Assembly: GCF_044324875.1 (NCBI RefSeq)
Contig: NZ_CP172185.1
DNA: 64,000 nt
Reading direction: 5' to 3' (one strand)
From: Escherichia coli
GTDB taxonomy: Bacteria > Pseudomonadota > Gammaproteobacteria > Enterobacterales > Enterobacteriaceae
Every line of letters begins with the position of its first letter. Position 1 is the stretch's first letter. Below the pieces are notes generated by a model that saw only the letters and a program-made list of their open reading frames with translations, ran no database searches and was not told the DNA's origin. Made by a program: the position numbers and the translations under genes. Positions 39,120 through 62,157 of this stretch are shown one piece after another.

Positions 39120-39155
39120 CAGGCATTTTTTATCACCAGACGACCGGGAGCCTTT

Positions 39156-40843: not shown

Positions 40844-41491
40844 ATGTCCGATAACGCTCAACTTACCGGTCTGTGCGACCGTTTTCGTGGTTTTTATCCT
40901 GTTGTGATCGATGTTGAAACAGCCGGATTTAACGCCAAAACCGATGCGCTGCTTGAGATTGCCGCCATCACCCTGAAAATGGATGAACAAGGCTGGCTGA
41001 TGCCGGACACCACATTACATTTCCACGTCGAACCATTTGTCGGCGCAAATTTGCAGCCAGAGGCCCTCGCCTTCAACGGCATTGACCCGAACGATCCCGA
41101 TCGCGGCGCGGTCAGCGAATACGAGGCGCTGCACGAAATTTTTAAAGCTGTACGTAAAGGCATTAAAGCGAGCGGCTGTAACCGCGCCATTATAGTGGCG
41201 CACAACGCCAATTTCGATCACAGCTTTATGATGGCCGCCGCAGAACGCGCCTCACTGAAACGTAACCCGTTCCACCCTTTCGCCACTTTTGACACTGCTG
41301 CACTTGCCGGGCTGGCACTCGGACAAACCGTATTGTCAAAGGCTTGCCAGACCGCTGGCATGGACTTCGACAGCACCCAGGCGCACTCCGCGCTGTACGA
41401 CACCGAACGCACTGCTGTGCTGTTTTGTGAAATCGTCAACCGCTGGAAACGTCTGGGAGGCTGGCCGCTACCTGCCGCCGAAGAGGTGTAA
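40844..41491 (+). CDS. rnt: Ribonuclease T
   Basis: 215-aa DEDDh exonuclease ([10 protein letters not shown]). Confidence 0.95.
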
Positions 41492-41583: not shown

Positions 41584-44500
41584 ATGGCAGATAATCCAAA
41601 CCTTTCATCGCCCCTGCCGGACGTGTTTTCACCGGCAACCCGCGACTGGTTTCTTCGCGCCTTTAAACAGCCGACCGCTGTCCAGTCGCAAACCTGGCAT
41701 GTGGCGGCGCGAGGCGAACATGCGCTGGTGATTGCACCGACTGGCTCCGGGAAAACGCTGGCAGCATTTCTCTACGCCCTCGATCAGCTCTTCCGCGAAG
41801 GCGGCGAAGATACCCGCGAGGCGCATAAACGTAAAACCTCACGCATCCTCTATATTTCACCGATCAAAGCTCTGGGCACCGACGTTCAGCGCAACTTGCA
41901 GATCCCGTTACAGGGTATTGCCGATGAACGGCGGCGGCGCGGCGAAACGGAAGTCAATCTTCGCGTGGGGATCCGTACTGGCGATACGCCTGCACAGGAA
42001 CGCAGCAAACTCACCCGTAATCCGCCGGATATTCTGATCACCACACCCGAATCACTCTATCTGATGCTGACCTCCCGCGCGCGCGAAACGCTACGCGGCG
42101 TCGAAACGGTAATTATTGATGAAGTCCACGCGGTAGCGGGCAGTAAACGTGGTGCGCATCTGGCGTTAAGTCTGGAGCGGCTCGATGCGCTGCTCCACAC
42201 CTCAGCACAGCGAATTGGCCTTTCTGCCACTGTACGCTCAGCCAGCGATGTTGCAGCATTTCTTGGTGGCGATCGCCCGGTTACGGTAGTAAACCCGCCC
42301 GCAATGCGCCATCCGCAGATACGGATTGTCGTACCGGTCGCCAATATGGATGATGTCTCATCGGTCGCCAGCGGCACCGGCGAAGACAGCCATGCCGGCC
42401 GAGAAGGCTCCATCTGGCCATATATTGAAACGGGTATCCTTGATGAAGTTTTGCGCCATCGCTCGACCATTGTCTTTACTAATTCACGCGGGCTGGCGGA
42501 AAAACTGACGGCACGATTGAATGAACTTTACGCCGCACGCTTACAGCGTTCCCCGTCTATCGCCGTTGATGCGGTCCATTTCGAGTCGACCTCCGGCGCA
42601 ACCTCTAACCGTGTACAAAATAGCGACATTTTTATTGCCCGCTCACACCACGGCTCCGTCTCTAAAGAACAACGAGCAATCACCGAACAGGCGCTGAAAT
42701 CGGGTGAATTACGCTGCGTGGTCGCAACCTCCAGTCTCGAACTGGGGATTGATATGGGCGCGGTGGATCTGGTGATTCAGGTGGCAACGCCGCTTTCTGT
42801 TGCCAGTGGGTTACAACGCATTGGACGTGCCGGACACCAGGTAGGTGGTATCTCCAAAGGGCTTTTTTTCCCCCGAACCAGGCGTGACTTAGTCGATTCC
42901 GCAGTCATTGTAGAGTGTATGTTCGCAGGCAGGCTGGAAAACCTGACACCGCCGCATAATCCACTCGACGTCCTTGCGCAGCAAACCGTTGCCGCCGCGG
43001 CGATGGATGCATTACAGGTAGACGAATGGTAATCCCGCGTACGCCGTGCCGCACCGTGGAAAGATCTGCCAAGACGTGTTTTTGACGCCACGCTGGATAT
43101 GCTTTCCGGGCGCTATCCCTCTGGCGATTTTTCTGCTTTTCGCCCCAAACTGGTCTGGAACCGGGAGACCGGGATATTGACCGCCCGACCTGGCGCTCAA
43201 TTGTTGGCGGTTACCAGCGGCGGCACCATTCCGGATCGTGGCATGTATAGCGTGTTATTACCCGAAGGTGAAGAACAGGCCGGTTCGCGGCGGGTGGGTG
43301 AACTGGATGAGGAGATGGTATATGAGTCGCGGGTGAACGACATTATCACTCTCGGCGCTACCTCATGGCGGATCCAGCAAATCACCCGCGATCAGGTGAT
43401 TGTGACTCCTGCTCCAGGTCGTTCTGCCCGCCTTCCCTTCTGGCGTGGTGAAGGTAACGGACGTCCGGCAGAATTAGGCGAGATGATCGGCGATTTTCTC
43501 CATTTACTGGCGGATGGCGCGTTCTTTTCCGGGACTATTCCCCCGTGGTTGGCAGAAGAAAATACGATCGCCAATATTCAGGGGTTGATTGACGAGCAGC
43601 GCAACGCGACGGGCATCGTTCCAGGTAGTCGTCATCTGGTCCTCGAACGGTGCCGTGATGAAATTGGTGACTGGCGTATTATTTTGCACTCTCCCTATGG
43701 AAGACGGGTGCATGAACCCTGGGCGCTGGCGATTGCCGGGCGAATACATGCACTATGGGGCGCTGACGCGTCTGTGGTTGCCAGTGATGACGGCATTGTT
43801 GCGCGCATTCCTGACACCGATGGTAAATTGCCTGATGCCGCGATTTTTTTGTTTGAACCAGAAAAGTTGCTGCAAATTGTCCGCGAGGCGGTAGGCAGCT
43901 CGGCACTTTTCGCCGCCCGTTTTCGCGAATGCTCCGCGCGGGCATTATTAATGCCGGGCCGCACGCCGGGCCATCGCACCCCGCTCTGGCAACAACGGCT
44001 GCGCGCCAGTCAGTTGCTGGAAATCGCTCAGGGATATCCGGATTTTCCGGTCATTCTCGAAACACTACGCGAATGTCTGCAAGATGTTTATGATCTTCCC
44101 GCGCTGGAACGTTTGATGCGTCGCCTGAACGGTGGCGAAATTCAAATATCCGATGTAACGACCACTACGCCTTCGCCTTTCGCCGCCAGTTTATTGTTCG
44201 GCTATGTCGCGGAATTTATGTACCAGAGCGACGCCCCGCTGGCAGAGCGCCGGGCATCCGTACTGTCGCTGGACAGCGAGTTACTGCGCAATCTACTCGG
44301 ACAGGTCGATCCGGGGGAATTACTCGACCCGCAGGTCATTCGCCAGGTGGAAGAAGAGTTGCAACGACTGGCTCCTGGCAGAAGAGCGAAAGGTGAAGAA
44401 GGATTGTTCGACCTGCTGCGCGAACTGGGGCCAATGACCGTTGAAGACCTGGCGCAACGACATACAGGCAGCAGTGAAGAGATTGCGTCGTATCTGGAAA

Positions 44501-45297
44501 ATCTTCTTGCAGTAAAACGAATCTTCCCGACCATGATTAGCGGGCAGGAGCGTCTTGCCTGTATGGATGATGCCGCCAGGCTGCGCGATGCTCTCGGCGT
44601 ACGACTACCAGAGTCACTGCCAGAGATTTATTTGCACCGAGTCAGTTACCCGCTTCGCGACCTCTTTCTGCGCTATCTCCGGGCTCATGCTCTGGTCACG
44701 TCTGAACAACTGGCTCATGAGTTTAGTCTCGGTACTGCCATTGTCGAAGAGCAACTTCAGCAACTGCGCGAACAGGGGCTGGTGATGAATCTGCAACAAG
44801 ACATCTGGGTGAGCGATGAAGTATTTCGTCGTCTGCGTTTGCGCTCGCTGCAAGCCGCCAGAGAAGCGACACGTCCCGTTGCGGCCACGACCTATGCGCG
44901 ATTGCTGCTGGAACGTCAGGGCGTATTACCCGCCACCGATGGTAGCCCGGCACTCTTTGCCTCAACATCGCCAGGCGTTTATGAGGGCGTGGATGGCGTG
45001 ATGCGGGTGATCGAACAGCTTGCTGGCGTTGGTTTACCCGCCTCACTCTGGGAAAGCCAGATCCTGCCTGCCCGCGTACGCGACTATTCGCCAGAAATGC
45101 TCGATGAATTACTGGCAACCGGTGCGGTTATCTGGTCGGGGCAAAAAAAGCTGGGTGAAGATGACGGTCTGGTGGCACTGCATCTACAGGAATATGCCGC
45201 AGAATCGTTCACTCCCGCCGAAGCAGATCAGGCGAATCGTTCGGCGCTGCAGCAAGCGATAATCGCTGTTCTGGCTGACGGAGGTGATCAGACATGA
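41584..45297 (+). pseudogene. lhr: ATP-dependent helicase Lhr, inactivated by an in-frame TAA at 43030-43032 and a 3' truncation at the prophage junction
   Basis: ORFs 41584..43032 and 43099..45297 are in the same frame and separated only by TAA; helicase motifs GSGKT and DEVH lie in the first part. The combined length is about 1237 codons against about 1538 expected. Confidence 0.8.
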
Positions 45298-45480
45298 GAT
45301 AAATGAAGGGGGATCCGTGAGATAAATAACGAATTGGAGTGGGTTAACATGGGTTCTGGTGAACAGAACTGAAATTCTTTTCCGCTATACGATAGATAAG
45401 TCGGGCATTGAAATCATCCTTCCTGGCAACTTAGAATCGAGTTTGCTGAAACATGACCCGCAACAAAAAGGATGATTCCA

Positions 45481-45642
45481 ATGACTACTCAAAACAATAA
45501 GCATGATAGCCTGGATTACTCAGAAAAGCCCAAAAGCAAGCACATCGTGACGTTCGAGCGCGATTCCGGTAGAAAAGGAGAATCGTCTTCCTCTGCCAAT
45601 AAAACCACTATGCCGGCAGCCCCTGCCCCAGGGAAAAAATAA
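45481..45642 (+). CDS. Possible small hydrophilic protein (53 aa) at prophage end
   Basis: ATG with AAGGA SD 6 bp upstream; MTTQNNKHDSLDYSEKPKSKHIVTFERDSGRKGESSSSANKTTMPAAPAPGKK. Convergent with the next gene with only 3 bp between stops, so uncertain. Confidence 0.25.
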   Translation: MTTQNNKHDSLDYSEKPKSKHIVTFERDSGRKGESSSSANKTTMPAAPAPGKK

Positions 45643-45645
45643 ACA

Positions 45646-46278
45646 TCATTCATCGTTCGTTGCACGAACGCGCCTGATCTCCACTCTGGCAATCTGATCT
45701 GCTGGAATATAGGTTGCCAGAGCTCCCCAGTACTTATCAACCACGCCTTTATACTCTTCCCATTCGTTACTGCCTGAAGGGCTGCTGTGCGTGACGTAAA
45801 GAACCATATCGCCTTTATTCCCCAGGGTAAACGGACCGTTAGGCCACTCTTCAAAGTTCCCTGGCAGCCGTGACATCATACCGGAACCATCGCGAAGAAT
45901 CACTCTGACCTCGGTAACGCTGAAGCCTGTTTGATCAAACATTGCCTGCCATGCTGAGCTGGTATCGTCAGACCATGAAATATCATTATTCCACAGTAAT
46001 CTGTACATCCATTTGCGACCGTACCTGCGCCACCACGCACCGCATGTAACGGCACACAGAAGTGCTGGTGGTGTTGCCAGCCAGGCATTCAGACCTGCCC
46101 ACATAACAGCCTGGTAAGCCATCATTGCTGTCAGGCCAAAAATCAGCGAAGAAAAAGTCACCTCAATGGGCTTGTGGTGATCCTTCAGTCCCACATTCGC
46201 AATAAAATACCCAATATAGCCACTGGTCAGGGTCACCAGTGTTGCCCATGGCAGATTTAACAACGAAACGTCAAACAT
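45646..46278 (-). CDS. Prophage terminal membrane protein of unknown function (3 predicted TM helices plus about 120-aa soluble domain)
   Basis: Start chosen at MFDVSLLNLPW..., which has a GGGAGA SD; lies downstream of a terminator that follows mor. Confidence 0.6.
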   Translation of the reverse strand: MFDVSLLNLPWATLVTLTSGYIGYFIANVGLKDHHKPIEVTFSSLIFGLTAMMAYQAVMWAGLNAWLATPPALLCAVTCGAWWRRYGRKWMYRLLWNNDISWSDDTSSAWQAMFDQTGFSVTEVRVILRDGSGMMSRLPGNFEEWPNGPFTLGNKGDMVLYVTHSSPSGSNEWEEYKGVVDKYWGALATYIPADQIARVEIRRVRATNDE

Positions 46279-46313
46279 ATTTTCTCCCTGCATCCTGAAT
46301 ACTAAAGAGAGAG

Positions 46314-46349
46314 CATAAAAAAAGCACGGTAAGGGGTCTACCGTGCTTT
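46314..46349 (-). terminator. Rho-independent terminator after mor
   Basis: On the minus strand: GCACGGTA-GACCCCTT-ACCGTGC followed by TTTTTTT. Confidence 0.6.
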
Positions 46350-46392
46350 TATACAATAAGGAGATTTTTGAAAGGACTTTAACAAGCAGGAA

Positions 46393-46791
46393 TTATCTGG
46401 ATTTGTTAACGTCTTTCGTCTCCTCTGGCAGATCTTCATCAAACAACCTGCCCTGCATCCGATCCAGTTCTTCTTTTCTGACCCGCTTAACCACGCTGTA
46501 GACCCACTGAAGCGAAACACCAAACTTGCGGGCCAGTTCGTGGTGGTTGCGTCCGTTAAACTCCCTGAAGATTTCCCGGTCGCGCTGACTGACCTTCCAT
46601 ACCATGCCCATCGGGAAATAAACGTTTTGCCCGCCCCAGACCTGCATCATTCGGTTCGCGACGGCCTGACCAATCTGGTCGGCAATTGCGGGCTCAATAT
46701 CAATAATCTCGCGAACGGTCTCAGAGGTATGCTGTGCCAGCTCCACCAGGAGTTCCGGCCCTTTACTTCGAAACTGATTCAGGTCGCTCAT
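46393..46791 (-). CDS. mor: Mor/C-family transcription activator (Mu middle operon regulator-like)
   Basis: 132 aa with C-terminal HTH (ELARKFGVSLQWVYSVVKR) typical of Mor; last gene of the early operon, after gemA, as in Mu. Confidence 0.75.
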   Translation of the reverse strand: MSDLNQFRSKGPELLVELAQHTSETVREIIDIEPAIADQIGQAVANRMMQVWGGQNVYFPMGMVWKVSQRDREIFREFNGRNHHELARKFGVSLQWVYSVVKRVRKEELDRMQGRLFDEDLPEETKDVNKSR

Positions 46792-47215
46792 GTTTTACTC
46801 CCGCAGCTCTGTGCTGCCACTTCTTCAGTTTCTCAATAACACTGCTTGCCTGTTCAGTATTGAGCCAGCGCAGGGCGCTGATGCCCGTTTCCCGCTTGAT
46901 CCACCGCGCTAATGCATTTTCTGAACGGTCACGAACAATGCCGGCAGCAGCCATTTCAAGCCATAGCGCACGGATTTTCCTGGACTGCGGATGGTTATCC
47001 AGCGGTAAACCGGAGCTGGCTTTTCCGGCAGGCTTAACGCGAAAGCCTTTCCTTTTCATGGATTCCAGCACGCAGTTTAGTTGTGTGGTATCCATTCCTT
47101 TGGTTGAGGCTTTACCGGTCAGCCCCTGTAACATCTGGCGATAGGTGTCTTCATCCATACCCAGTTCATTACGGGCAATATGAATGAGCTGGATAAGACG
47201 TTGTTTAGTCATCAT
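46763..47215 (-). CDS. gemA: GemA-like phage regulatory protein (Mu gp16 family)
   Basis: Core RLIQLIHIARNELGMDEDTYRQML...SRKIRALWLE resembles Mu GemA; start placed at internal Met. Confidence 0.7.
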   Translation of the reverse strand: MMTKQRLIQLIHIARNELGMDEDTYRQMLQGLTGKASTKGMDTTQLNCVLESMKRKGFRVKPAGKASSGLPLDNHPQSRKIRALWLEMAAAGIVRDRSENALARWIKRETGISALRWLNTEQASSVIEKLKKWQHRAAGVKHERPESVSK

Positions 47216-47420
47216 CGTTGCTCCTTTTACCTGCGCCACCGATATAATCGACATATAAAGGAAGCGCCACAGGCCAGCACAGGAACATCACCGACCAGCT
47301 AATCCAGTAGCCGGCACCACTGTAACGTGAATAAAACCCTGAACGGCGGTGCAGTTCAGCAGTACACCAACCGACAAAACAATACCAGAACAGGGCACAT
47401 ACAACAGATTCAGCCGTCAT
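47205..47420 (-). CDS. Small phage membrane protein, hypothetical
   Basis: Hydrophobic 71-aa product from internal Met (MTAESVVCALFWYCFVGW...); the longer upstream extension overlaps the neighbouring gene. Confidence 0.4.
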   Translation of the reverse strand: MTAESVVCALFWYCFVGWCTAELHRRSGFYSRYSGAGYWISWSVMFLCWPVALPLYVDYIGGAGKRSNDDD

Positions 47421-47640
47421 TCTGAATATCCCCCCAACTGATATGAATATTACGGGCAGCAATGACAGGGTCGTTATTCCACCATGCACCTGACATGTAT
47501 TTTTCAACCTGTTCGCGTCCGGCAATAACACCAATTGTGATCCCCGGCCTGACGTTCTTAAAAAAGGCGCGGGCAAAAAGGTATCTGGCAGATATTCGGC
47601 AGGCTTTTAATTTCCGGCTGTTACCTGATAGCGTAATCAT
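47410..47640 (-). CDS. Hypothetical phage early protein
   Basis: 76-aa ORF in an operon-like tandem with overlapping stop/start. Confidence 0.4.
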   Translation of the reverse strand: MITLSGNSRKLKACRISARYLFARAFFKNVRPGITIGVIAGREQVEKYMSGAWWNNDPVIAARNIHISWGDIQNDG

Positions 47641-48320
47641 CTGGCCTCCAGTTTCTGTTGTTCCTGCCCACTGACCGGGCGGTGCAGTCTGACGTTCTGC
47701 CCTTCACGAAACCCCGCATAGCGCGAGGCGTCGCCATTGCGGCTTCTTCCCGGTTTACGCGCCCTGGTGGTTTGCGTCTGCGGGTATTTATGTTCCAGCC
47801 ACTGCTGCATCAGTTCACGCTCATCATCGGTCAGGGCAAAGGACTGTATTTCACTGATAACGGCCAGCACCCAGCCTTCGGCAAACTGGTCTCCACGGCT
47901 GGTGCGGGTGGCGGTTTTTATTCTTTTGTTCTGTGCACTGATATACTGCTGACGCGCCTTTTTCAGCTGACGGGCCAGCACTTCCCAGGTGTATGCAGCC
48001 AGTGCCGCACGTTCCCGGTTGCCGTAGAACCCCACAGACGGATGCGTGCCGGGGTGAATGATGGAGTTAACACCAAATACCTCGCGGATGATGTTCATCA
48101 GGCCTGGCATGTAGCGCGGTGGACGGAGACTGCCTGTCGGCCAGTAGTGACTGATGGTTTCATCAATATCACTCATAGCAATGTCGGAATGTGTGATGCC
48201 GTGAACATCCATCAGTTTACGGGCTCGGCGCAGTGCCAGAGCGGCCTCGTGCGGGTTGCCGGATGCGGCCAGCGCCAGCAACTTTTTCAGTTTCTCAATG
48301 TGTTTATTCTGGTCTGTCAT
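47637..48320 (-). CDS. Hypothetical phage early protein
   Basis: Charged, protein-like composition; start placed at an internal Met to avoid overlap with the upstream gene. Confidence 0.5.
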   Translation of the reverse strand: MTDQNKHIEKLKKLLALAASGNPHEAALALRRARKLMDVHGITHSDIAMSDIDETISHYWPTGSLRPPRYMPGLMNIIREVFGVNSIIHPGTHPSVGFYGNRERAALAAYTWEVLARQLKKARQQYISAQNKRIKTATRTSRGDQFAEGWVLAVISEIQSFALTDDERELMQQWLEHKYPQTQTTRARKPGRSRNGDASRYAGFREGQNVRLHRPVSGQEQQKLEAR

Positions 48321-48532
48321 TGTTCTGTATCTCCGGTATTTTTCTGCCGTTTCCATGCCCGGACAGCGTCGGACAGCTCTTTCAGGCTGTATGCTGCTTT
48401 AAGCTTTTCCCATAACCACTGTGTTGTTATGTGCATCAGCAGGGCAGCCAGGGCTGCCCCCGCACTGAGGCATGTCGCCAGGCCAGTAAGAATCAGTATC
48501 CATGCGGTGATTTCCCTGAGTATGTCAGCCAT
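48317..48532 (-). CDS. Hypothetical small phage membrane protein
   Basis: 71 aa with one hydrophobic helix. Confidence 0.45.
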   Translation of the reverse strand: MADILREITAWILILTGLATCLSAGAALAALLMHITTQWLWEKLKAAYSLKELSDAVRAWKRQKNTGDTEQ

Positions 48533-48546
48533 TGAATGCCTCCCGG

Positions 48547-48843
48547 TTACTCGTTCGTGTAAATCACGCCCAGTCGTGCAGCCAGACGTTCCAGTTTTTT
48601 CTGTTTGTGGAAGTCAATCAGCCGGTCCATCCCCTGAAGGCGCAATTGCTCTGTCATGATTTCCACGTCTGCCAGCTCTGCCGCGAGGTCGCTTTCGCTG
48701 CCCTGTCCGTTCAGATTGCGGGCAGCACTGGCCGCCAGTTCAGCGGCCTCTTCTGTCAGTTTCAGGGCCTGTGCGTCCGGCCCGAAACGCTGCAGGGCCA
48801 GACGGTAGAGGGCGGTGCGGGTGAGTATGGTGTTCCGTGTCAT
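48547..48843 (-). CDS. Hypothetical phage early protein
   Basis: 98-aa ORF in the early operon. Confidence 0.5.
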   Translation of the reverse strand: MTRNTILTRTALYRLALQRFGPDAQALKLTEEAAELAASAARNLNGQGSESDLAAELADVEIMTEQLRLQGMDRLIDFHKQKKLERLAARLGVIYTNE

Positions 48844-48852
48844 GCCGCGCCC

Positions 48853-49125
48853 TCAGTGCTTCCGGCTGACGGTGATGTGCAGGCCGCCTTCTGCAGTGGT
48901 TTCCATCCGGTACGGCACCTCATGCTCTGCCGTGTGGGTGAGTGTGTTCATCAGTACCTGCAGGGCAGCCGCCTTTCCGTTGGTTGCCACAATGGCCTGT
49001 GTGGTCATGCTGATTAGCGCCGTCAGGACGTGCTTCACATCGGTGAGGTCGCGGCATTCACACTCGTTGACATAGTGTTCAACAAGGGTTCGGGTGCGCT
49101 GTCGTGCTTCCTGTGGGGTAATCAT
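48853..49125 (-). CDS. Hypothetical phage early protein
   Basis: 90-aa ORF. Confidence 0.5.
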   Translation of the reverse strand: MITPQEARQRTRTLVEHYVNECECRDLTDVKHVLTALISMTTQAIVATNGKAAALQVLMNTLTHTAEHEVPYRMETTAEGGLHITVSRKH

Positions 49126-49316
49126 TGCGAGTCCTCCCTGTCAGGGCGGGAGAATTCCATGACGGGCACGTCTGCCGAAAAATGCTGGCTGCAGTACGGG
49201 CAGACCAGGGTGACGCGTACCGCAGGGATGTGGTATTTACCGGACATCACGGCGATGGCGCTGTGAAAACGCAGGGCTGTTATATCCCTCTCGCACTGAA
49301 TACATTTAAATATCAT
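49122..49316 (-). CDS. Small zinc-ribbon-like phage protein
   Basis: 64 aa with two CxxC pairs (CIQC ... CPYC). Confidence 0.45.
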   Translation of the reverse strand: MIFKCIQCERDITALRFHSAIAVMSGKYHIPAVRVTLVCPYCSQHFSADVPVMEFSRPDREDSQ

Positions 49317-49413
49317 GATTTAATTCTCCTCTGTTTCCGGCGTGCAGAAGCCCGCGGCGCTGACGCCGGAATAAAAAAGAAAATGTTTTTATTAAATAAT
49401 TAACGTGGTGTGT

Positions 49414-49944
49414 TTACTGCACATCCTGCTCAAAAGGAATTATTGAAAAATCCTCAATGTCGCTTTTAATGGAAATACCGGGAATATTTTTCACGGCCTC
49501 TTTTTCATTCAGGATAGCGTCTTTATTTATTTCCTCTTTTACACGAATAAAGCGCTCAAGCCCCAGACGTCTCAGTAATTCAATAACATTATCCGCCCCA
49601 CGGATACTGACTGATGGCGGACGGTTTCGCCACTGCACCTCGCCGGTGGTAAGGTTAGCGAACTTCACCTTCCCGTTGCCGGTCAGTTCATCACGGTGCG
49701 CCTCACACCATGTCTGGATACCGGACTGCAGTTCGGCCATGCGTTTTTTCAGGCTCTCGGTGAGCGGGGCATAACGTGCGGTGATATCGCCAATGGCGTC
49801 ATTCATTTCTGTTTCAGCCCTGACCAGTTCACGTTGTGCGTCACCGAGTAGTCTGATTCCCTCAATGACCTCTTCGCGTGTCCCTGGTACCCAGAGTGCC
49901 GCTGCGGCCTTGATACGTTTTGCCCCTTTTGTACTTTTTGCCAT
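49414..49944 (-). CDS. gam: Host-nuclease inhibitor protein Gam (Mu Gam family)
   Basis: 176 aa; MAKSTKGAKRIKAAAALWVP...LETEMNDAI...DFSIIPFEQ matches my recollection of Mu Gam along its whole length. Confidence 0.9.
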   Translation of the reverse strand: MAKSTKGAKRIKAAAALWVPGTREEVIEGIRLLGDAQRELVRAETEMNDAIGDITARYAPLTESLKKRMAELQSGIQTWCEAHRDELTGNGKVKFANLTTGEVQWRNRPPSVSIRGADNVIELLRRLGLERFIRVKEEINKDAILNEKEAVKNIPGISIKSDIEDFSIIPFEQDVQ

Positions 49945-49971
49945 ATTTTATGATTTCTCCGGTTGTGCTGA

Positions 49972-50241
49972 TTACCACAAAGATTCCGGCCACACGACGC
50001 GACAGCCGTGCAGTTCGAAAACGCCCTGACGGAAATATCCCCTGTGGTCATGTCCGGTATACAGATAACAGGCCTTTCCCTGCTCAAGCATGCGCATGCA
50101 ATGCGCACTCCGGGAAACGCGGATGACAGGTTTGTTACCCCTGATGGTGATGCTTTGTACATCCGTGTTCGTCGCCTTAAGCGCCATAATGGCTGACTGC
50201 ACTTTGCTGATTTGCTGGTTGATACCTGTGGTGGATTTCAT
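49972..50241 (-). CDS. Hypothetical phage early protein (position of Mu kil)
   Basis: 89-aa ORF directly downstream of the B-like gene. Confidence 0.45.
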   Translation of the reverse strand: MKSTTGINQQISKVQSAIMALKATNTDVQSITIRGNKPVIRVSRSAHCMRMLEQGKACYLYTGHDHRGYFRQGVFELHGCRVVWPESLW

Positions 50242-50243
50242 TA

Positions 50244-51437
50244 TTAAACTCCTTTGACAACGTCAGCGTTGACCTGTGGAACCCCGATTTCAGCGGCCAG
50301 ATTCATGGCGGCTATTACCAGGTTACTGACGGCCAGCGGATACAGCAGGCTGACCATATTTTTACGATGACTTCCCGGATTGCTCAGGCGGGCACGTATG
50401 GCATCCACTGCGCTGGCGTCCATAATGTCCGTCAGTTGTTTACCGGCCCGTTGCAGTTTGAACGTCAGAAATTCTTCAAGGTTATTGTCCAGAGGCAGAA
50501 GTTCGACCACCTCACAGCGCTGAACGACTTCACGGACTTCCATATTGCGTTCAGACAGTTTTGTCGCCAGTTCCGGCTGGCCAATCAGCACGATGGACAG
50601 CAGTTTTTTGAAACCGGACTCCAGCTCAAAAAAGCGTTTGAGGTGTTTCAGTGTCGGAATGGGCAGACTGTGGGCCTCCTCAATCACCAGAACGTGGCTG
50701 AACCCCGCCTGGCTGCTGTCTTTCAGGACGCGATGCAACTGGCGAAAGCGGGCGTCCTGACTGCGTCTGATGCTTTCCAGTGGTGCGATGGTACTGATAA
50801 TGGCTTCGGCAATAGCTGCTGCCTTCAGGGTTTTCCCTTTCACATCGTTGTCTTCCATAGCGATGATGTATGGCTCGATAACAATTACCGGCGCATTCTC
50901 GCGGTTAATACGTTCAGTCAGGTCGCGGCGCAGCGTGGATTTACCCGCACCGGACTCACCGATGACGGCCATAAACCCACCATGACGGGCTGTCTGGTAC
51001 AGCGCCTCACGCACGTAGCGAATGTCCGGGGTGGTGAACACATCATCAGAACCCTGCATGGCTTCATCGGCGAACGGGTCACGGAAAAGACCAAACGCTT
51101 TTTTGGTTGCTGGAAATAACACCTGTTTTTTGAGTAACATATTCTCTTCCTCACTGAGGCTCGTTTTATCTGTGGTACCCGCTGTACGGGGCGTGGCCGC
51201 GCCCTGTACAGCATCAAAACTCTTCGTTGTATCAATCCCCTGACTTTCCAGCCAGGACGCAAGACGCCGGCGCACTTCTCCGGGGCTGGTGCGGGGCCAC
51301 GCGTTATGATTCACAATCTGGGCCAGCGTGGCCTCAGAAACATCGACAGCTCTCGCCGCCACCGCCTGTGGAATACGGGCCTCTTTCAGTTGCTGCTTCA
51401 GTACCAGCATGTTTCCCTCCTCAGTTGCCGTTAACAA
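50244..51437 (-). CDS. Transposition helper ATPase (MuB-like, AAA+)
   Basis: 397 aa; N-terminal HTH-like region then Walker A GESGAGKST and Walker B VLVIEEAH; start overlaps the transposase stop. Confidence 0.8.
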   Translation of the reverse strand: MLTATEEGNMLVLKQQLKEARIPQAVAARAVDVSEATLAQIVNHNAWPRTSPGEVRRRLASWLESQGIDTTKSFDAVQGAATPRTAGTTDKTSLSEEENMLLKKQVLFPATKKAFGLFRDPFADEAMQGSDDVFTTPDIRYVREALYQTARHGGFMAVIGESGAGKSTLRRDLTERINRENAPVIVIEPYIIAMEDNDVKGKTLKAAAIAEAIISTIAPLESIRRSQDARFRQLHRVLKDSSQAGFSHVLVIEEAHSLPIPTLKHLKRFFELESGFKKLLSIVLIGQPELATKLSERNMEVREVVQRCEVVELLPLDNNLEEFLTFKLQRAGKQLTDIMDASAVDAIRARLSNPGSHRKNMVSLLYPLAVSNLVIAAMNLAAEIGVPQVNADVVKGV

Positions 51438-53190
51438 TGCTGATAACGCTGCTGCGGGCCGGCGTGGTCAGCGTGGCCATGACTTCATCCAGTGCGGCTT
51501 CCGGTACGCCGTCCGGGTACTGTGCTGTTAACTGGCGGTAATGTTCCGGCGTCCAGGTCAGGCCGTCGGCGCTGAACTTATCGCGCAGGGCTTTCGCGGC
51601 CTCCACATGAGTCATGGGACGCTGTTCAGTGCGCGGTCCGCGTACGTCAGAGGCCTGACCACGCTTCGGTATACAGGCCGGAAGTGTGGCGTCATCAATA
51701 TGTTTATACGGGTCAAGCCGCCCGCCGAACGGCAGCGCCTTCGCCTTGCGTGCGGCAGCTGCATCTGCGGCGTTGTCTGTACCGGTGACCAGCGCTTCGG
51801 TTTCTTTTGCCGCCATCTGCGCCGGGGTTTCCGGCAGGGCTTTGTAACTTTCGCCAAATACCGCCGCGCCTTCAGCAAAGCCAAACTCGTTCTTTCTGAC
51901 CTCTTCGACCAGGAAGAACGTCTCGTGGCCGTCCTCACCGGTCAGAACCACCTGTGCCACATCGCTGCGCCACGGGTTACGGGTAATCATCAGTTTTTCA
52001 CCGACCAGTACGCCCGGTACCGTTGATACGTCAAATTCAGTGCCCCGGAACGAGACACGAAGTTTTGGCGTGACTTTGCGGAGTTCTGGTGCCGCCACAG
52101 CCAGTTCACGACATACCTCAACGGAAGGCGCTTTTTTCAGCTGCTCAGCAGTAATCTTCAGCCAGATATCCGTGCGGGTTTTACCGTGGCGGCTGTGAAC
52201 AGCCGTGGCGTTAAAGTGGCTGCGCCATTTCGCGGCCAGCGCGTTGAGTTCTTCCAGACTGTGAACCGGCCGGAACTTCAGACCCGGCTCCAGCTTGCGT
52301 TCGATAATGTCACGCGCCTTTTCCACCTGTCCGGTGGCGCGGGCGTTATGCGGCTTGTGCGCTATCAGGTCGATGCCCAGTGAGCGGCACATGTTTTTCG
52401 TCATACCCGCGGTGTTTGCCGAGCCGGGGTCGAGATAGAGTATTTTTGGCACGCCGTGCAGCACGTCTGCGCCGCCACGCTCCTGCATGGCGTTGATAAG
52501 CACAGAACACAGGTTCTCACCGGATTCCGCACCCGTCACATACTCAACGTAAATCCAGCCGCTGGCATGGTCGGTAATCTCGTAACTCCACACGCGGTCA
52601 CTGGCGATACGGGCAAGGTTAGCGGGCTTGTTTTTGTAGAATTTCGCGCTGTCCATCACCTGCAGCCCTTTATGTCCATTGCTCAGGTAGTAAAGCGTGC
52701 AGAGTGAGGCGTCAATCTGCCAGACATGATTGGGGTGCAGACTGGCCACTTCGGTATGCGGTGCAGGGGCATCCAGTTGTTCCGGGTGCAGGCCATAGTT
52801 ACGCAGGGCACGACTGATGGCATCTTCGGACAACGGGAAAAACTCACCGGTGGTTTCATCTGTTCTGCCTGCGGAGATAAAGCCGTTAGCCCGCAGGGTT
52901 TCCACTGCATCCGCGATGGAATAGAGACGCTTACCGTTCTTGCGGGTGGCCTCACGTAGTGTGGCAGATATCAGCGCGGCTTCGTCGCGGGTCAGGGTGC
53001 TGCGTCCGGCATCGGCGCGTTTTTTGCGTTTATCAGTCACAGAGACCTCCTTCAGCCTGCGCAGCAGAGTGGCGCGGGACATGCCAAGTTCAGCACAGGC
53101 AGCGTCGTATATTGCACCGCGTTTACCATGCCCCGCATTACGTGCCGCGCGGGCTGTTTCAACAAGTTTTTCAGTCAGTGCCGGGGTCAT
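51421..53190 (-). CDS. DDE (rve-type) transposase of the transposable phage, TnpA
   Basis: 589 aa; N-terminal HTH then an integrase-core-like region (HVWQIDASL...LYLDPGSANTA); followed by the AAA+ partner as in Mu A-B. Confidence 0.8.
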   Translation of the reverse strand: MTPALTEKLVETARAARNAGHGKRGAIYDAACAELGMSRATLLRRLKEVSVTDKRKKRADAGRSTLTRDEAALISATLREATRKNGKRLYSIADAVETLRANGFISAGRTDETTGEFFPLSEDAISRALRNYGLHPEQLDAPAPHTEVASLHPNHVWQIDASLCTLYYLSNGHKGLQVMDSAKFYKNKPANLARIASDRVWSYEITDHASGWIYVEYVTGAESGENLCSVLINAMQERGGADVLHGVPKILYLDPGSANTAGMTKNMCRSLGIDLIAHKPHNARATGQVEKARDIIERKLEPGLKFRPVHSLEELNALAAKWRSHFNATAVHSRHGKTRTDIWLKITAEQLKKAPSVEVCRELAVAAPELRKVTPKLRVSFRGTEFDVSTVPGVLVGEKLMITRNPWRSDVAQVVLTGEDGHETFFLVEEVRKNEFGFAEGAAVFGESYKALPETPAQMAAKETEALVTGTDNAADAAAARKAKALPFGGRLDPYKHIDDATLPACIPKRGQASDVRGPRTEQRPMTHVEAAKALRDKFSADGLTWTPEHYRQLTAQYPDGVPEAALDEVMATLTTPARSSVISIVNGN

Positions 53191-53205
53191 AGCTTGTCTT
53201 CCCTG

Positions 53206-53523
53206 TTATCCGATTCTGGCGGCAATTTTTCTGGCACGGTCGCGCAGGGTTTCGCCATCGCAGGTTTTCACCACGTTATTTACCGGTTGCGGCGCAACTG
53301 CCGGGCGCAATGCTGACTGATGCTGCAGACGTCTTATCTGCTGCATCAGCATCACTTCCATCGTCAGTACAAACGGATGCGCCTCCTGTGCGGGTACGCA
53401 GATTTCACCGGAAGGTGTCACCACGCGGAAACCCTGCACCATCTCCGGCAGCAGATTACACAGTGCGTGCCCCAGTGCCTCCGGGCTGTCCATCAGGATA
53501 TTTTGTGTGTTATCCGTGTTCAT
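53206..53523 (-). CDS. Hypothetical phage early protein
   Basis: 105-aa ORF between the Ner-like gene and the transposase. Confidence 0.45.
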   Translation of the reverse strand: MNTDNTQNILMDSPEALGHALCNLLPEMVQGFRVVTPSGEICVPAQEAHPFVLTMEVMLMQQIRRLQHQSALRPAVAPQPVNNVVKTCDGETLRDRARKIAARIG

Positions 53524-54440
53524 TACTGCATGCCCTCCGGTCGGTTGATTTCAGGCTCCGGTTCGGTCAGCCATGCGGGGACATCGTTACCCGATGGTGC
53601 GGCATCAAGGTCGAACGTCTCACGCAATGCATGAACACTGCGTTCAATCTGGCAGACCAGACCGGCCATGAAATCTCTGGGGGTATCAATCATGTTTTTA
53701 CTGCAGTATTCACACAGGGTTTCAAAGGCACCGGAGAGCCGGACGGCGATGGCAGATTCCGCCTCAACCGCTAATGCGGTCACTTCCGCCCGCAGCTTCT
53801 TCACCTCTTCATCAGGCTCAGGCGGTTGAATACGGGATTTCTTCTCCAGTTTTGTGGCCAGTTCGTTGATTTTTTCGTCCTTTCCGGCAAGCACCTGTTG
53901 CTGAGCTGCGTTAGTTTCGCGCGCTTCACGCAGGGCCTGGCGAAGTTCACGTACTGACATGCGATCAACATCATCAAGCGTCAGGCCGGCAACTGTGCCG
54001 CCGTCGGCCAGTTCGGCAAGGTCTTCATCGTCTTCAGCAACAAGTTCAAATAATTTTGCCTTACCCAAAAGCGACAACGTTGTCGCTTTTGGCTCTAGTT
54101 TTGGTGAAAGGTATTTCAAAGATGCTTTCATCATTCGTTGTGCTGCGCGCACGTGCAAACCAAGTTGTTCTTCTACAATTCCAACAAAGTCCCCGTGTGG
54201 CTCATTTTCTTTTAAGATGATCAGCCGTTTACCCGCTTCCAGCATAGATTCAGCACTCTGCGCCATATAAAAACGTGCTTCGTGAACGATGCGATCACGT
54301 TCATAAGGCAGTCCATCACCAAACTGCTGCATGATCTCCATGCGATGCTGTGTCATGGCATTCAGGCTGACGTTGAGATCATCCGACAGCGGTACCTCGG
54401 CGTTCAGTTCAGTGTTAACCGGTGATTTGGTGCGTCCCAT
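53523..54440 (-). CDS. Hypothetical acidic, helix-rich phage early protein
   Basis: 305 aa with long charged helical segments; family not recognised. Confidence 0.55.
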   Translation of the reverse strand: MGRTKSPVNTELNAEVPLSDDLNVSLNAMTQHRMEIMQQFGDGLPYERDRIVHEARFYMAQSAESMLEAGKRLIILKENEPHGDFVGIVEEQLGLHVRAAQRMMKASLKYLSPKLEPKATTLSLLGKAKLFELVAEDDEDLAELADGGTVAGLTLDDVDRMSVRELRQALREARETNAAQQQVLAGKDEKINELATKLEKKSRIQPPEPDEEVKKLRAEVTALAVEAESAIAVRLSGAFETLCEYCSKNMIDTPRDFMAGLVCQIERSVHALRETFDLDAAPSGNDVPAWLTEPEPEINRPEGMQ

Positions 54441-54450
54441 TGATTACTCC

Positions 54451-54765
54451 TTACAAACGACTACCTGAAATGACACGTTGGTTGATTTCGTTAATGCGAT
54501 CCTGTGCACGTGCCATCTCGTTACTGTGGGCCATGGCGATCTGCAGCAACTGGATGCCCGGTGCGAAACGCCCGTTTTCCAGTTTCAGGGCCAGTCCTTC
54601 TTCAATGAGGGTGTTGAGTGCCCGGTTGATGTTTGCCGGTGACTCGTGCAGTGCTGCCGCCAGTTCACCATTGGAAATACCGTTCAGGGCATGACCGCGC
54701 AGCGCTTTGAGTACCCGGAGGATGCGACTGCCGGAGCTTGAAACATTCGTCTTACTCATCTGCAT
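54451..54765 (-). CDS. Putative winged-helix DNA-binding protein
   Basis: 104 aa; SRILRVLKAL...GISNGELAAALHESPANINRALNTLIEEGLA resembles IclR/MarR-type HTH regions; AGAGG SD present. Confidence 0.5.
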   Translation of the reverse strand: MQMSKTNVSSSGSRILRVLKALRGHALNGISNGELAAALHESPANINRALNTLIEEGLALKLENGRFAPGIQLLQIAMAHSNEMARAQDRINEINQRVISGSRL

Positions 54766-54811
54766 ACCTCTTTTGCGATATGTGATAACCTTTTACAAAG
54801 AATCAAAATAT

Positions 54812-55000
54812 TCAGGCTGCCTGAGCTGTTGATTTCAGCCCCAGTTTCACGGCGATTTCATGGGATTTACCGTAACGTGCTTTGCTCTGCCCATTGAGAA
54901 CGCGGTATACCTCATTGCGGTTGTAGCCGTTTTCTTCTGCCCAGCGGGTGAAAGTGATCCCGCGCTGGCGGAAGAGAGCTTTGACTTGTTCTGCAGTCAT
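54812..55000 (-). CDS. Ner-like (Cro-analog) DNA-binding protein
   Basis: 62 aa; strong SD AAGGAG 8 bp upstream; spacing of G-T/S, NG, and KxxIAxxLG residues parallels Ner/Nlp; divergent from the repressor. Confidence 0.6.
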   Translation of the reverse strand: MTAEQVKALFRQRGITFTRWAEENGYNRNEVYRVLNGQSKARYGKSHEIAVKLGLKSTAQAA

Positions 55001-55100
55001 CGTTGTCTCCTTTGTTGATGCAATGATGTTTGCCTTATGTGTGATAGATTATGGTGCAGATTATCTCACCAGTCAACTTAAAGAGTGCAGAAAAACTCAC
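55001..55100. promoter_or_regulatory. Divergent promoter/operator region between Ner-like gene and repressor
   Basis: 100-bp intergenic region containing GTGATAGATTAT and an inverted copy AGATTATCTCAC. Confidence 0.45.
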
Positions 55101-55439
55101 ATGATCGGGTTACGTATTAAAGAAGAAAGAGAGCGTCTATCTCTTACACAGCAAGGGTTGGCTGATGCTATCGGTGTGGCAAAGAGAACTTTTATTGATT
55201 GGGAAAAAGATCGCACTTCTCCTACTGCAGTGCAGTTATCTGCACTATCAGAAATCGGTGTAGATGTTTTGTATGTAGTTACTGGGGTGCGGAGTCAGCC
55301 TGTTGTTGCACCTTATATGTCACAAGAAAAGAAAGAGTTAATGGATGCATTCGACGAGATGAGCCCCGAACAACGGAGGGCAATTCTTGAGGTCGGCAAA
55401 GTCTTCATTCAACCCAAACCAAGCAAACTCGCAGGCTGA
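55101..55439 (+). CDS. Phage repressor, HTH_XRE (Cro/C1-type)
   Basis: Start at internal ATG (MIGLRIKEERERLSLTQQGLADAIGVAKRTFIDWEKDRTSP), 112 aa. Confidence 0.7.
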   Translation: MIGLRIKEERERLSLTQQGLADAIGVAKRTFIDWEKDRTSPTAVQLSALSEIGVDVLYVVTGVRSQPVVAPYMSQEKKELMDAFDEMSPEQRRAILEVGKVFIQPKPSKLAG

Positions 55440-55524
55440 TTCTGACCTGGACAGAAAGGACAGGTGGTTGATCTGGATGCTTTCAGAAAACGCCGTCAGT
55501 AGCATGGCAGAAATCGGCGGGCTT

Positions 55525-55560
55525 ACCGGAAAGCACTGTACTTTCCGGTTATGGCTTTTA
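55525..55560. terminator. Terminator between repressor and dam
   Basis: Hairpin ACCGGAAAG..CTTTCCGGT followed by a T-rich tract. Confidence 0.45.
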
Positions 55561-56322
55561 GAAATTGCAGATCACCAGCTCACGGCGTGGAGTTGATTTG
55601 CCTGCCAGACTGTAGTTGATGTTCACTGTCTGTATGTTCAGTCCAGTGAACACCTCGCGCATCTGCGGGATGTCGTTCACCGAAATTATCATCTTTCCTC
55701 TGATGCACCGGGCCAGCTCTGCCAGCCGCGAGTAGTTCCCTTCAGGAAAATCCACACCATAGCCTTCTGTACCCAGATACGGCGGGTCACAGTAGAACAG
55801 CGTGTGCGGACGGTCATAGCGCTCAATGCACTGTTGCCAGTCCATGTGTTCTATCACCGTTCTGGAAAGCCGCAGGTGTGCCGCTGACAGTTCTTCCTCG
55901 ATACGCAGCAGGTTGAAGCGTGGCGGGGATGTGGTGGAGGTGCCGAAGCTGTGCTCTGCCACCTTGCCGCCAAACGCCTGCTTCTGGAGGTAGTAGAACC
56001 GTGCTGCACGCTGGATATCCGTCAGTGTTTCTGTCGGGGTGATCTGCAGCCATTTGTAGATCTGCCGGCTGACCAGCGCCCATTTGAACTGGCGGACAAA
56101 TTCTTCCAGATGATGTTTTACCACCCGATACAGATTTACCAGTTCACCATTGATATCGTTAATGACTTCGAGCTTACCAGGTGTCTTAAGAAAATAGAGC
56201 GCTGCTGCGCCGCAGAACGGCTCCACGTAACATTCATGCGCCGGAAACAGCGGCAGGATGTGTTTTGCCAGGCGACGTTTGCCACCAATCCATGGAACGA
56301 TGGGTAATGTCTGCATTTTCAT
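55558..56322 (-). CDS. dam: DNA adenine methyltransferase (Dam-like, no adjacent restriction gene)
   Basis: 254 aa; SAM motif EPFCGAAALYF and catalytic DPPY. Confidence 0.85.
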   Translation of the reverse strand: MKMQTLPIVPWIGGKRRLAKHILPLFPAHECYVEPFCGAAALYFLKTPGKLEVINDINGELVNLYRVVKHHLEEFVRQFKWALVSRQIYKWLQITPTETLTDIQRAARFYYLQKQAFGGKVAEHSFGTSTTSPPRFNLLRIEEELSAAHLRLSRTVIEHMDWQQCIERYDRPHTLFYCDPPYLGTEGYGVDFPEGNYSRLAELARCIRGKMIISVNDIPQMREVFTGLNIQTVNINYSLAGKSTPRRELVICNF

Positions 56323-56514
56323 AATCTGTAAGCCTTTTACAATTATTAAAAATATGGCAGGCTAGTCTGGTCTCGCGAGACTGACTGAACCCCGGTCGGC
56401 TCACAGCGCATTCCTGTGGGACGATGGCCAGCCCGGTGGGTCCGAAGCACCGGGCTGGTCGTTCTTTCATGATGCGGCAGGGATGAAGTGATTTCTGTTA
56501 ATGTGGTTTAGGGA

Positions 56515-56730
56515 TTATCCGGGGCGATTTTCTGACCTTATCTGGTCCAGGGCATAAGTGATCCCTTCTGCAAAAACAGAAGTATCAAACTGCTTTTGTA
56601 TTTCCTGAAAATGAACAGTGGCACGACAGACACTCAGTTCTCCGCGATGTAACCGGATAATATCTTCCAGAACATTGTTCACTGCTTCGGCACGGCGCTG
56701 ATGTTCTGTTAACGTTAATCGGGGATTCAT
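56515..56730 (-). CDS. Hypothetical 71-aa phage protein
   Basis: Strong SD AAGGAG 6 bp upstream of ATG; no family recognised. Confidence 0.55.
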   Translation of the reverse strand: MNPRLTLTEHQRRAEAVNNVLEDIIRLHRGELSVCRATVHFQEIQKQFDTSVFAEGITYALDQIRSENRPG

Positions 56731-57107
56731 GATGCACTCCTTAAATGATGATTTTTATGTACTCACCGGCAAAATATTCTGCCGATTACTGAACACGCAT
56801 CCGGCTCCTCAGGTTTTGATTTATTCTGGTTTTTTCGATATCCCGGACCAGGTTGATCACGACAGAAAAAGTGCCGGTATTTTATTGATACGCTGATATG
56901 GCTTCGGGATAACAGCTATATTCGTTACTCTCAGTTGCTGGCTGTGGGAGCGGCTGATGTCGTCCTCACGGAAAAAACGCTCTGTCTGCTCAATGCCATG
57001 CCGACCTTTCTGCAGCCCCGGCCCGTACCATTTAAAGAGTCACTTCTGGATGCAGTAAAAACCGGTGAAAATGCAGTCATCGCTGAATGCGTATCCCGGA
57101 TTATGCG

Positions 57108-57656
57108 TTACGTGTTTAATGAACGTAAGTGAGGTTTATCCGCTGTCTGCATAATCCCGATAGCCAGTGCGAGGGGAAGCAATTCCGGGGAAACTCTTTC
57201 AAACAGCGATTCCCATTCTCCTCTCGCCATCACTCTGTCCAGCCCGCCCTCCAGCTGCATTTCAGCAATCTTCCTGATTTCCCGGAACAACGCCGCTTTG
57301 ATCTCTTCATGCTCAGCTTTATTTTCCGGTGTCAGAATGTATTCGTCGAAGAACCGGGGAGGCTGGTTAACGGGGGGCATGTTCACCGGGATGTGTTCCT
57401 GTATCCCGTACTCCGGGGCTGAAAAACATTTTGTTGTCTGACCGGTGAGTTTGCGTAACACCTTCATGAGTTGCTCCTGAAGCAGCTCATTCGTCCGACA
57501 GATACGCTCGTCGTCCACAACTGCGGCATCGACAATGACGCTTTTTCCAAATTCCTTTTTCACCATCTCTTTTATACGCGTCAGAACGTAACTTTTACCG
57601 CTGCCTACAGGCCCGGACACTCTGACGGTGATGGTCGGCTTCGGTGTGACTGTCAT
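57108..57656 (-). CDS. P-loop NTPase-like protein of unknown function (182 aa)
   Basis: Start at internal ATG with SD AAGGAGA 7 bp upstream; Walker A GPVGSGKS at residues 14-21; divergent from the lysis cassette. Confidence 0.6.
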   Translation of the reverse strand: MTVTPKPTITVRVSGPVGSGKSYVLTRIKEMVKKEFGKSVIVDAAVVDDERICRTNELLQEQLMKVLRKLTGQTTKCFSAPEYGIQEHIPVNMPPVNQPPRFFDEYILTPENKAEHEEIKAALFREIRKIAEMQLEGGLDRVMARGEWESLFERVSPELLPLALAIGIMQTADKPHLRSLNT

Positions 57657-57787
57657 TCTGTATCTCCTTTGTGAGTGATCCAGCGTGTATTCTGCATACC
57701 CCGAACACGCCTCTCTCTTAACGCGCTTTAAAATCCTCCGCGCCACGCTTTTGCCATGCTGTCTCCACACAACAAGGAGACATTTTC

Positions 57788-58138
57788 ATGAAACCATTCA
57801 CTTCCCTTATCGTTGACGTACAAAAAACCCGCCTGCGTGGATGGCTTGTTGCGGCCGTGCTGCTGCTCCTCATCATCGCGCTGGTCTCACCCCAGCAGTT
57901 GCCGGTGGTGGTGTACAAGCTCTCTCTCATCTCCCTCGCCGCCGTGCTCGGCTACTGGCTGGACCGCTCACTCTTCCCGAAGGCCCGTCCGGGGCAGTAC
58001 CTGAAGCATGACGAGCGCCTCATGGCTGAGGGGCGCTGGCCCGTACAGACCGGCCTTCACCTGGTGTTTTCTGCTGCGTTAATCCGCCGTGCACTGATTG
58101 TTGCAGCTGTCTGTCTGGCTGTTGCGATGGGGCTTTAA
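57788..58138 (+). CDS. Putative holin (membrane protein, first late/lysis gene)
   Basis: 116 aa with 2-3 hydrophobic helices; AAGGAGA SD; immediately precedes the endolysin. Confidence 0.55.
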   Translation: MKPFTSLIVDVQKTRLRGWLVAAVLLLLIIALVSPQQLPVVVYKLSLISLAAVLGYWLDRSLFPKARPGQYLKHDERLMAEGRWPVQTGLHLVFSAALIRRALIVAAVCLAVAMGL

Positions 58139-58140
58139 TC

Positions 58141-58875
58141 ATGAACTGGCCACAGAGCACCTGGATTGTATGCATGTCCCTGAAACTGGCTTTCGAAGCC
58201 TTTCTGGTCTTCATCAGAACCGAACGCCTGTCAGTCCGTGTCGGGACCTTTCTGGTTCATATGGCATGGGTATTCTTTGTCGCAATGTTGCTCTGGTGTG
58301 GCGGCTTCTTCAGTCAGGCCCGCGCAGCGCAGCCTCCGCAGGCTGCGCTGCAGTATCGCGATGATGTGATCCGTAATGCCCGGCTTGAATGGGGGCTGTC
58401 TGCGCCGGTGGCCGATTTCGCCGCGCAACTGCATCAGGAAAGCGGCTGGCGGACTGATGCGGTCTCGCCGGTGGGCGCTCAGGGGCTGGCGCAGTTTATG
58501 CCCGCCACCGCTGACTGGATAAGCCAGTTGATGCCGGCGTTGAGCAGTCGTGAGCCGTTTAATCCGGCATGGGCCATCCGGGCGCTGGTCAGCTATGACC
58601 GCTGGCTGTGGCAGCGCATCAGCGCCGCCAGTGACTGCGAGCGTATGGCCATGACACTGTCGGGCTATAACGGTGGTCTGGGTTGGGTACAACGGGACAG
58701 GCGGCTCGCATCACAGAAAGGTCTGGACAGCACCCGCTGGTTCGGACATGTCGCCACGGTGAATGCCGGACGCAATGCTGCCAGCTGGCGGGAGAACCGC
58801 CATTATCCGCAGCGCATCCTGCACGAACTGGCCCCCCGTTATCTGACATGGGGGGGCGGCAGCTGTGTGGACTAA
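58141..58875 (+). CDS. Endolysin, lytic transglycosylase (SLT domain), possibly signal-anchored
   Basis: QLHQESGWRTDAVSPVGAQGLAQFMP matches the SLT catalytic E-S...GLxQ motif; hydrophobic N-terminal segment. Start codon uncertain. Confidence 0.75.
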   Translation: MNWPQSTWIVCMSLKLAFEAFLVFIRTERLSVRVGTFLVHMAWVFFVAMLLWCGGFFSQARAAQPPQAALQYRDDVIRNARLEWGLSAPVADFAAQLHQESGWRTDAVSPVGAQGLAQFMPATADWISQLMPALSSREPFNPAWAIRALVSYDRWLWQRISAASDCERMAMTLSGYNGGLGWVQRDRRLASQKGLDSTRWFGHVATVNAGRNAASWRENRHYPQRILHELAPRYLTWGGGSCVD

Positions 58876-59167
58876 CCTGCTAAAAAATCTGCCGTGGCGC
58901 AGTCTGCTGCTGGCAGTGCTCATAAATGCTTTTCTGATTGGACTTTATTACCTGGGCTACAAAAGTGCAAAATGGCATCTGAATCGATCGCAGTTTGGCA
59001 TTCGAATCGATCATGATTTGGCATCCATCTCCGATCACAGTTTGGCATCACAATCGATCACGATTTGGCATGCTTCCGATCATTGATTGGCATCCTGCCA
59101 GTCACTCCGGGAATTAACTCTTTTCACCACAGTCTCCATTGCCGTGTTTAAACCAGTGGAGACGTCA

Positions 59168-60733: not shown

Positions 60734-60749
60734 CAGAAGGAACAACAGT

Positions 60750-61505: not shown

Positions 61506-61856
61506 AAAGCGGTAGAAAAAGTTAAGTTCCCGGTTGATCGAATGGATGCGAATCGCTGATCGGACTTCGATGCCAATCCGTGATCGAATAGAGCGGAATA
61601 CGCAAAAGCGGGCATGAAAACGCCACGCGCGACGGCGATAAGGCGATCAGTGAGTTGCAGTCAGCATTCGACACATACAAAACGGAGCAGGCAATGCTTG
61701 AGAACGCTGCATTGCGAGCATGGGCAAAACGGTATCAGGAGCAGGTGGCCGCTGGGCAGCAGGCTGAGGCCGGTTATCTTGAGCAGATTGCTCAACTGGA
61801 GAGTCAGAACAAACAACTACAGGGGCAAATTAACGATGTCACACAGCGCTGGATTG

Positions 61857-62123: not shown

Positions 62124-62157
62124 ACGCGTTGCTGGATGAACGGGAAGGATTACAGAA

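Follow-up and report, generated by a model that had tools for sequence, protein, structure and literature searches.

The E. coli Lhr protein (b1653) is a 1,538-aa "large helicase-related" protein of helicase superfamily SF2 that functions both as a DNA repair helicase and as a uracil-DNA glycosylase. Its ATPase and translocase activities sit in an 877-aa core (residues 1–877), which has been purified as an active monomer, and its C-terminal domain drives oligomerization; Trp620 of domain 4 (Trp597 in the Mycobacterium smegmatis protein) was shown to matter (PMC8053096). The uracil-DNA glycosylase activity needs Asp1536 and is separable from the helicase activity, and deletion of lhr from K-12 leaves a viable strain with moderate sensitivity to AZT and peroxide (PMC10953399). 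In M. smegmatis, an Lhr fragment comprising residues 1–562 cannot hydrolyze ATP (PMC5758891).

The lhr gene studied here lies in a stretch of 64,000 nucleotides from E. coli, referred to below as the window. It has the same rnt-lhr locus as b1653 and the same domain order up to a prophage junction. Unlike b1653, it is broken twice, by a TAA at codon 483 and by a prophage at codon 1234, making a full-length product impossible. The prophage is like the insertions of BcepMu-type Mu-like phages, with which it shares a DDE transposase, a MuB/ExeA-like ATPase, Gam, Mor, GemA and a TG end.

The lhr locus and the prophage within it

The gene from 41584 onward was identified as E. coli lhr based on its 97–100% identity to annotated lhr genes, and a 401-base stretch around the stop matched annotated lhr in 4,381 of the 5,426 complete E. 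coli genomes at 95–99.8% identity. The upstream neighbors are nemR, nemA, gloA and, directly adjacent, rnt (ribonuclease T; 40844..41491, + strand), an ORF that is collinear with the annotated rnt of strains 746 and GN25. In intact genomes the downstream neighbor is grxD; the gene is therefore in its orthologous position between rnt and grxD, with the grxD side displaced past the prophage. Collinearity with strain GN25 extends from window base 3 to 45284.

Two regions outside lhr stood out in the GN25 comparison. In the internal repeat region of rsxC (21168–21591) the alignment was ambiguous, with overlapping alignments and extra matches of 89–91%, a pattern that suggests variation in repeat number. 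Several contigs in Logan, a set of assemblies built independently from the raw reads of public sequencing runs, also seemed to end in this region. In addition, six differences from GN25 were bunched within 470 bases (36215–36682), the rest of 36000–45284 being nearly identical. These six differences are shared by a sister assembly, and the cluster may represent a small recombination tract.

The Pfam families DEAD, Helicase_C, WH_Lhr and DEAD_assoc were all matched by the window lhr. In the intact GN25 protein these domains span residues 31–218, 349–417, 446–616 and 679–867, respectively, and are accompanied by the C-terminal modules WH2 (912–1016), WH3 (1130–1206) and WH4 (1334–1416). The lhr protein also matched the solved M. 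smegmatis Lhr structures 5V9X (E 6e-294) and 7LHL (E 0).

Homology to lhr ends at 45284, and from 45285 (TGATCAGACATGAG...) the sequence is that of an element seen at many chromosomal positions elsewhere. The matches to this element in other E. coli genomes were of up to 100% identity and all started at 45282–45285, so that its end falls at the same base in different chromosomal positions; in strain Ec1117, for example, the same phage adjoins inaA. At least 95 complete genomes carry near-identical copies of the prophage, which sit at differing chromosomal sites. The junction (45285..45297, + strand), located by the comparison to GN25 and by the same-phage matches in other genomes, joins GACGGAGG to TGATCAGACATGAG: the prophage begins with TG within lhr codon 1234, at 45285, and the fused frame continues as Gly-Asp-Gln-Thr before a stop (TGA, 45295–45297). 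These data indicated that a BcepMu/Mu-like transposable prophage is inserted in lhr codon 1234. The earlier note on this DNA had credited lhr with two lesions, of which the stop was held to be separate from the prophage truncation; both points held, the TAA being confirmed and the junction lying 2.25 kb downstream of it.

The window contains the left junction and the left part of the prophage (45285..64000, no strand assigned), which runs off the window end; the right end of the prophage, any 5-bp target-site duplication and the last ~305 lhr codons lie beyond the 64 kb, and the event may have been a simple insertion or one combined with a deletion. The C-terminal domain of Lhr is incomplete here, with WH2 and WH3 present and with WH4 (1334–1416) and Asp1536 beyond the junction and outside the window. 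The leftward early prophage genes encode Mor, GemA/gp16, Gam, an ExeA/MuB-like ATPase, a DDE transposase, a DUF3102 protein and HTH regulators, and the later genes include those for a Dam methylase, a holin and an SLT lysin, followed by the first packaging genes; a DUF3486 protein, a DUF935 portal and a head morphogenesis protein are also encoded. A DDE transposase and an AAA+ target-DNA activator were thus found together with Gam, Mor and GemA (Pfam rve, AAA_22, Phage_Mu_Gam, Mor and GemA), and the annotation of an identical phage in RefSeq agrees with a Mu-like gene set. The early genes (mor, gemA, gam, and the B-like and A-like genes) are oriented toward the near end, an arrangement that we take to resemble that of BcepMu.

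The prophage itself carries an IS21-family insertion sequence (58966..61602, + strand) encoding an IstA-like protein of 548 aa, with rve and Mu-transposase C-terminal domains, and an IstB of 332 aa. It has multiple terminal repeats of the form CGATC..TTTGGCAT and is flanked by the direct repeat CAAAAG. This element breaks the prophage gene directly after the SLT lysin gene and has no part in the lhr lesion; it is missing from the Ec1117 prophage, which is otherwise 99.99% identical.

A nonsense codon at lhr codon 483

The window reads GAC GAA TGG TAA TCC CGC at 43021–43038, with TGG TAA TCC at 43027–43035. Translation of 41584–45297 in one frame, from the ATG at 41584 to the TGA at 45295–45297, revealed a single internal stop, the TAA at 43030–43032 (+ strand), between ...ALQVDEW and SRVRRAAPW. 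The premature in-frame TAA described in the earlier note was therefore correct in its letters, coordinates and frame, as was the statement that the large ORFs on either side, 41584..43032 (482 aa) and 43099..45297 (732 aa), share one frame. The note had placed the stop at about codon 483, and the position is exactly 483 ((43030 − 41584)/3 + 1). TAA is neither a selenocysteine nor a pyrrolysine codon, and TAA followed by T, as is the case here, is a strong terminator in E. coli.

Comparison to GN25 across the 3,701 bases of lhr at 41584–45284 identified one difference, position 43032, which is A in the window and C in GN25. The single-base nonsense change that the note had supposed is thus the only departure from GN25 within this part of lhr. 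It is a C>A transversion at the third codon position, which converts TAC (Tyr483) to TAA. The note's expectation of a sense codon, based on the K-12 protein, was borne out by a K-12-type genome reading ...VDEWYSRVRR..., with Tyr483. In M. smegmatis Lhr the residue aligned to Tyr483, within the winged-helix domain, is Phe.

The distribution of the two alleles was examined with 30-mers centered on the variant site, in which every 28-base seed word includes the variant base. The TAA 30-mer matched none of the 5,426 complete E. coli genomes, and the TAC 30-mer, which served as the positive control, matched 4,332 genomes at 100% identity. Comparison with lhr from other strains, which the note had proposed as a check of the stop, gave TAC in GN25, the K-12-type genome and these 4,332 genomes. 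Based on these findings TAA is a rare, derived allele, with A at 43032 the derived base and TAC the ancestral codon.

The stop divides the gene into two parts. The 5' fragment (41584..43032, + strand; codons 1–482 and the TAA), which was delimited by its ORF, translation and Pfam matches and by the identical product among the Logan contigs, encodes the two RecA-like domains of the SF2 DExH motor (DEAD 31–218, E 3e-33; Helicase_C 349–417) and the first 37 residues of the winged helix (WH_Lhr 446–482 only). The remainder (43033..45284, + strand; codons 484–1233 and 2 nt) is identical to GN25 lhr and encodes the rest of the winged helix, domain 4 (DEAD_assoc) and the C-terminal modules WH2 and WH3, but is cut off from the lhr start. 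Hence, although WH_Lhr and DEAD_assoc are encoded, the TAA parts both from the motor. An in-frame stop is present where orthologues have a sense codon, in flanking sequence that is otherwise undisturbed, and, judged by its sequence, the gene in the window is lhr but qualifies as a pseudogene.

Order of the lesions and their predicted effect on Lhr

To order the two lesions, we rebuilt the product expected of the prophage insertion alone, with Tyr483 restored (1,237 aa), and looked up its exact sequence. Seven NCBI and Logan contigs were found to encode this product, with Tyr483 and the same junction residues. Sister contig SRR21142071, the one retrieved, matches the window in junction and prophage genes and differs from it at only 2 of 19,714 bases, positions 38387 and 43032. 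The former is a G>T change on the + strand within ydhL, which is encoded on the minus strand, and is synonymous (GTC>GTA, Val at codon 10). Because sister contigs with the same junction retain Tyr483, the prophage insertion came first and the nonsense change later; the insertion is common to the wider clone and the stop is confined to a sub-clone. The opposite order, with the stop preceding the prophage, was rejected. One exact sequence for a stop without the prophage, a 1,033-aa product from Met506 to the end of Lhr, was looked up and was not on record; this is weak negative evidence, whereas the positive evidence for the prophage having come first is strong.

The consequences for the protein were considered by analogy with the characterized Lhr proteins. 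The 1,237-aa product is without the last ~305 residues, including the WH4 module and Asp1536, and would have lost the glycosylase activity while keeping the complete helicase core; normal oligomerization was probably lost as well. The 482-aa product is without most of the winged helix and all of domain 4, including Trp620. As an even longer mycobacterial fragment (1–562) is inactive, we infer that helicase activity is lost in the 482-aa product and predict that the strain is entirely null for lhr. Since the prophage left the 877-aa core in place and the stop cuts this core inside the winged-helix domain, the two lesions would not be redundant: the stop would remove the helicase core that the prophage had spared. 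The findings therefore support two refinements to the earlier note, namely that the lesions are sequential and that they are functionally non-redundant.

Origin of the stop and its place in lhr loss

We consider it highly likely that the stop is a genuine, recent, clone-specific nonsense mutation in an lhr gene that had already been split by the Mu-like prophage, and that it most likely reflects neutral decay. A Mu-like prophage entered lhr at codon 1234, which would have given a 1,237-aa product with the helicase core and without the glycosylase end. A C>A change at 43032 in a sub-clone then created the TAA, so that translation would end inside the winged-helix domain. The stop would have persisted by neutral decay, which is favored because E. 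coli can do without lhr and the gene had been broken beforehand, although neutrality is assumed here.

Two of the alternatives are very unlikely. The absence of the TAA allele from all complete genomes (0 of 5,426), together with its being a lone substitution, the kind of change that errors make, might point to a sequencing or assembly error, with C as the true base at 43032 and the prophage as the only lhr lesion. However, three Logan contigs encode exactly the 482-aa product; their runs number at least two and belong to different archives. The two contigs retrieved, from SRR31073000 and ERR14764776, showed 100% identity with the window across 13,449 and 7,653 bases (7.6–14 kb), stop included. 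The 732-aa downstream ORF, ending in the prophage junction, is likewise on two Logan contigs, and position 43032 is outside any homopolymer. With the stop supported by reads in three independent Logan assemblies of public runs, an assembly or polishing error is very unlikely and this explanation was rejected. The note had held that raw reads with a sense codon would refute the stop; these assemblies, the closest available proxy, point the opposite way. All three read sets with the TAA may derive from a single isolate or a very close clone, so that the TAA may have been acquired in culture. The alternative that the gene is a functional split gene, in which the 482-aa motor fragment and a 732-aa product restarted at Met506 form an active enzyme, is the least credible of those considered and was also rejected. 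Both ORFs are long, in frame and called by gene callers, but no clear Shine-Dalgarno motif was found in GACGCCACGCTGGAT, upstream of the ATG at 43099 (Met506). In addition, the 23 winged-helix residues 483–505 would be missing, the prophage cuts the downstream piece short as well, and the allele is limited to one small clone whose sisters have an uninterrupted frame. Even if made, the restart product would be without the motor domains.

The contig from ERR14764776 ends at window position 43236, 204 nt past the stop and short of the prophage junction, with no repeat or other cause visible in the window.

The other alternatives concern the cause of the stop. The stop could have been selected as a second hit that silenced a harmful, prophage-truncated Lhr with an intact core but without the C-terminal end that contributes to oligomerization and glycosylase activity. 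The order of the lesions fits, the 1,237-aa product retains the whole core (PMC8053096), and one of only two substitutions between the window and its sister contig (19.7 kb) is nonsense, when nonsense changes make up 3.4% of the possible single-base changes in this lhr fragment (6.5% of the G:C>T:A changes). Against this, the truncated open allele is present on seven contigs and is thus tolerated, there is no sign of toxicity of a core-only Lhr, the core having been purified as an active monomer (PMC8053096), no parallel second hits to this single event were found, and a nonsense change is expected to survive in a dead gene. We regard selection of this kind as unlikely. Less likely still is a raised rate of G:C>T:A changes in the clone, whether from oxidative damage, a defect of the mutY/mutM type or the loss of the Lhr glycosylase. 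Of the two differences between the window and its sister, 38387 G>T and 43032 C>A, each is a G:C>T:A transversion, and Buckley et al. (PMC10953399) connect the loss of Lhr with sensitivity to oxidative stress and make mention of C-to-A outcomes. There are only two such events, however, the mutY, mutM and mutT genes are outside the window, and this proposal concerns the cause of the mutation and leaves the nature of the lesion unchanged. That the stop was a selected "clean-up" of a harmful truncated Lhr, or a self-inflicted G:C>T:A change through loss of the Lhr glycosylase, is accordingly an improbable pair of accounts, and neutral decay of an already split lhr is the reading that we prefer.

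Other E. coli genomes provide further examples of lhr loss. In about 1,044 of the 5,426 complete genomes (~19%), the match to the lhr query stretch was limited to its first ~111 nt. One such genome, APEC O1 (NC_008563.1 1743475–1757585, locus 7001–7229), was inspected and has remnants of 111 and 126 nt between rnt and grxD; the pattern suggests a large clade in which an lhr deletion of ~4.4 kb has become fixed. In strain Z142-1, lhr is interrupted by IS1. The protein cluster of the 482-aa fragment has 1,052 members, with many other short N-terminal Lhr fragments of varied length, some of which carry the label partial because contig ends cut them. The APEC O1-type deletion and the Z142-1 insertion are, like the lesions described here, inactivating lesions of a dispensable lhr in wild isolates. 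They differ in kind, the former being a deletion and the latter an IS insertion, whereas the stop at Tyr483 is a point change restricted to a small clone and absent from all complete genomes.

The appropriate annotation of lhr in the window is that of a pseudogene carrying two independent lesions, and the TAA sub-clone can be told apart from its sister isolates by the SNP at 43032. Beyond annotation the finding matters little: lhr loss is common, and both the gene and this type of event are known. Its small added value is a dated case of stepwise gene decay, in which a prophage insertion was followed by a point mutation that would have removed the remaining helicase core. The predicted absence of both Lhr activities would, from the K-12 deletion data, give the strain a mild sensitivity to peroxide and AZT.
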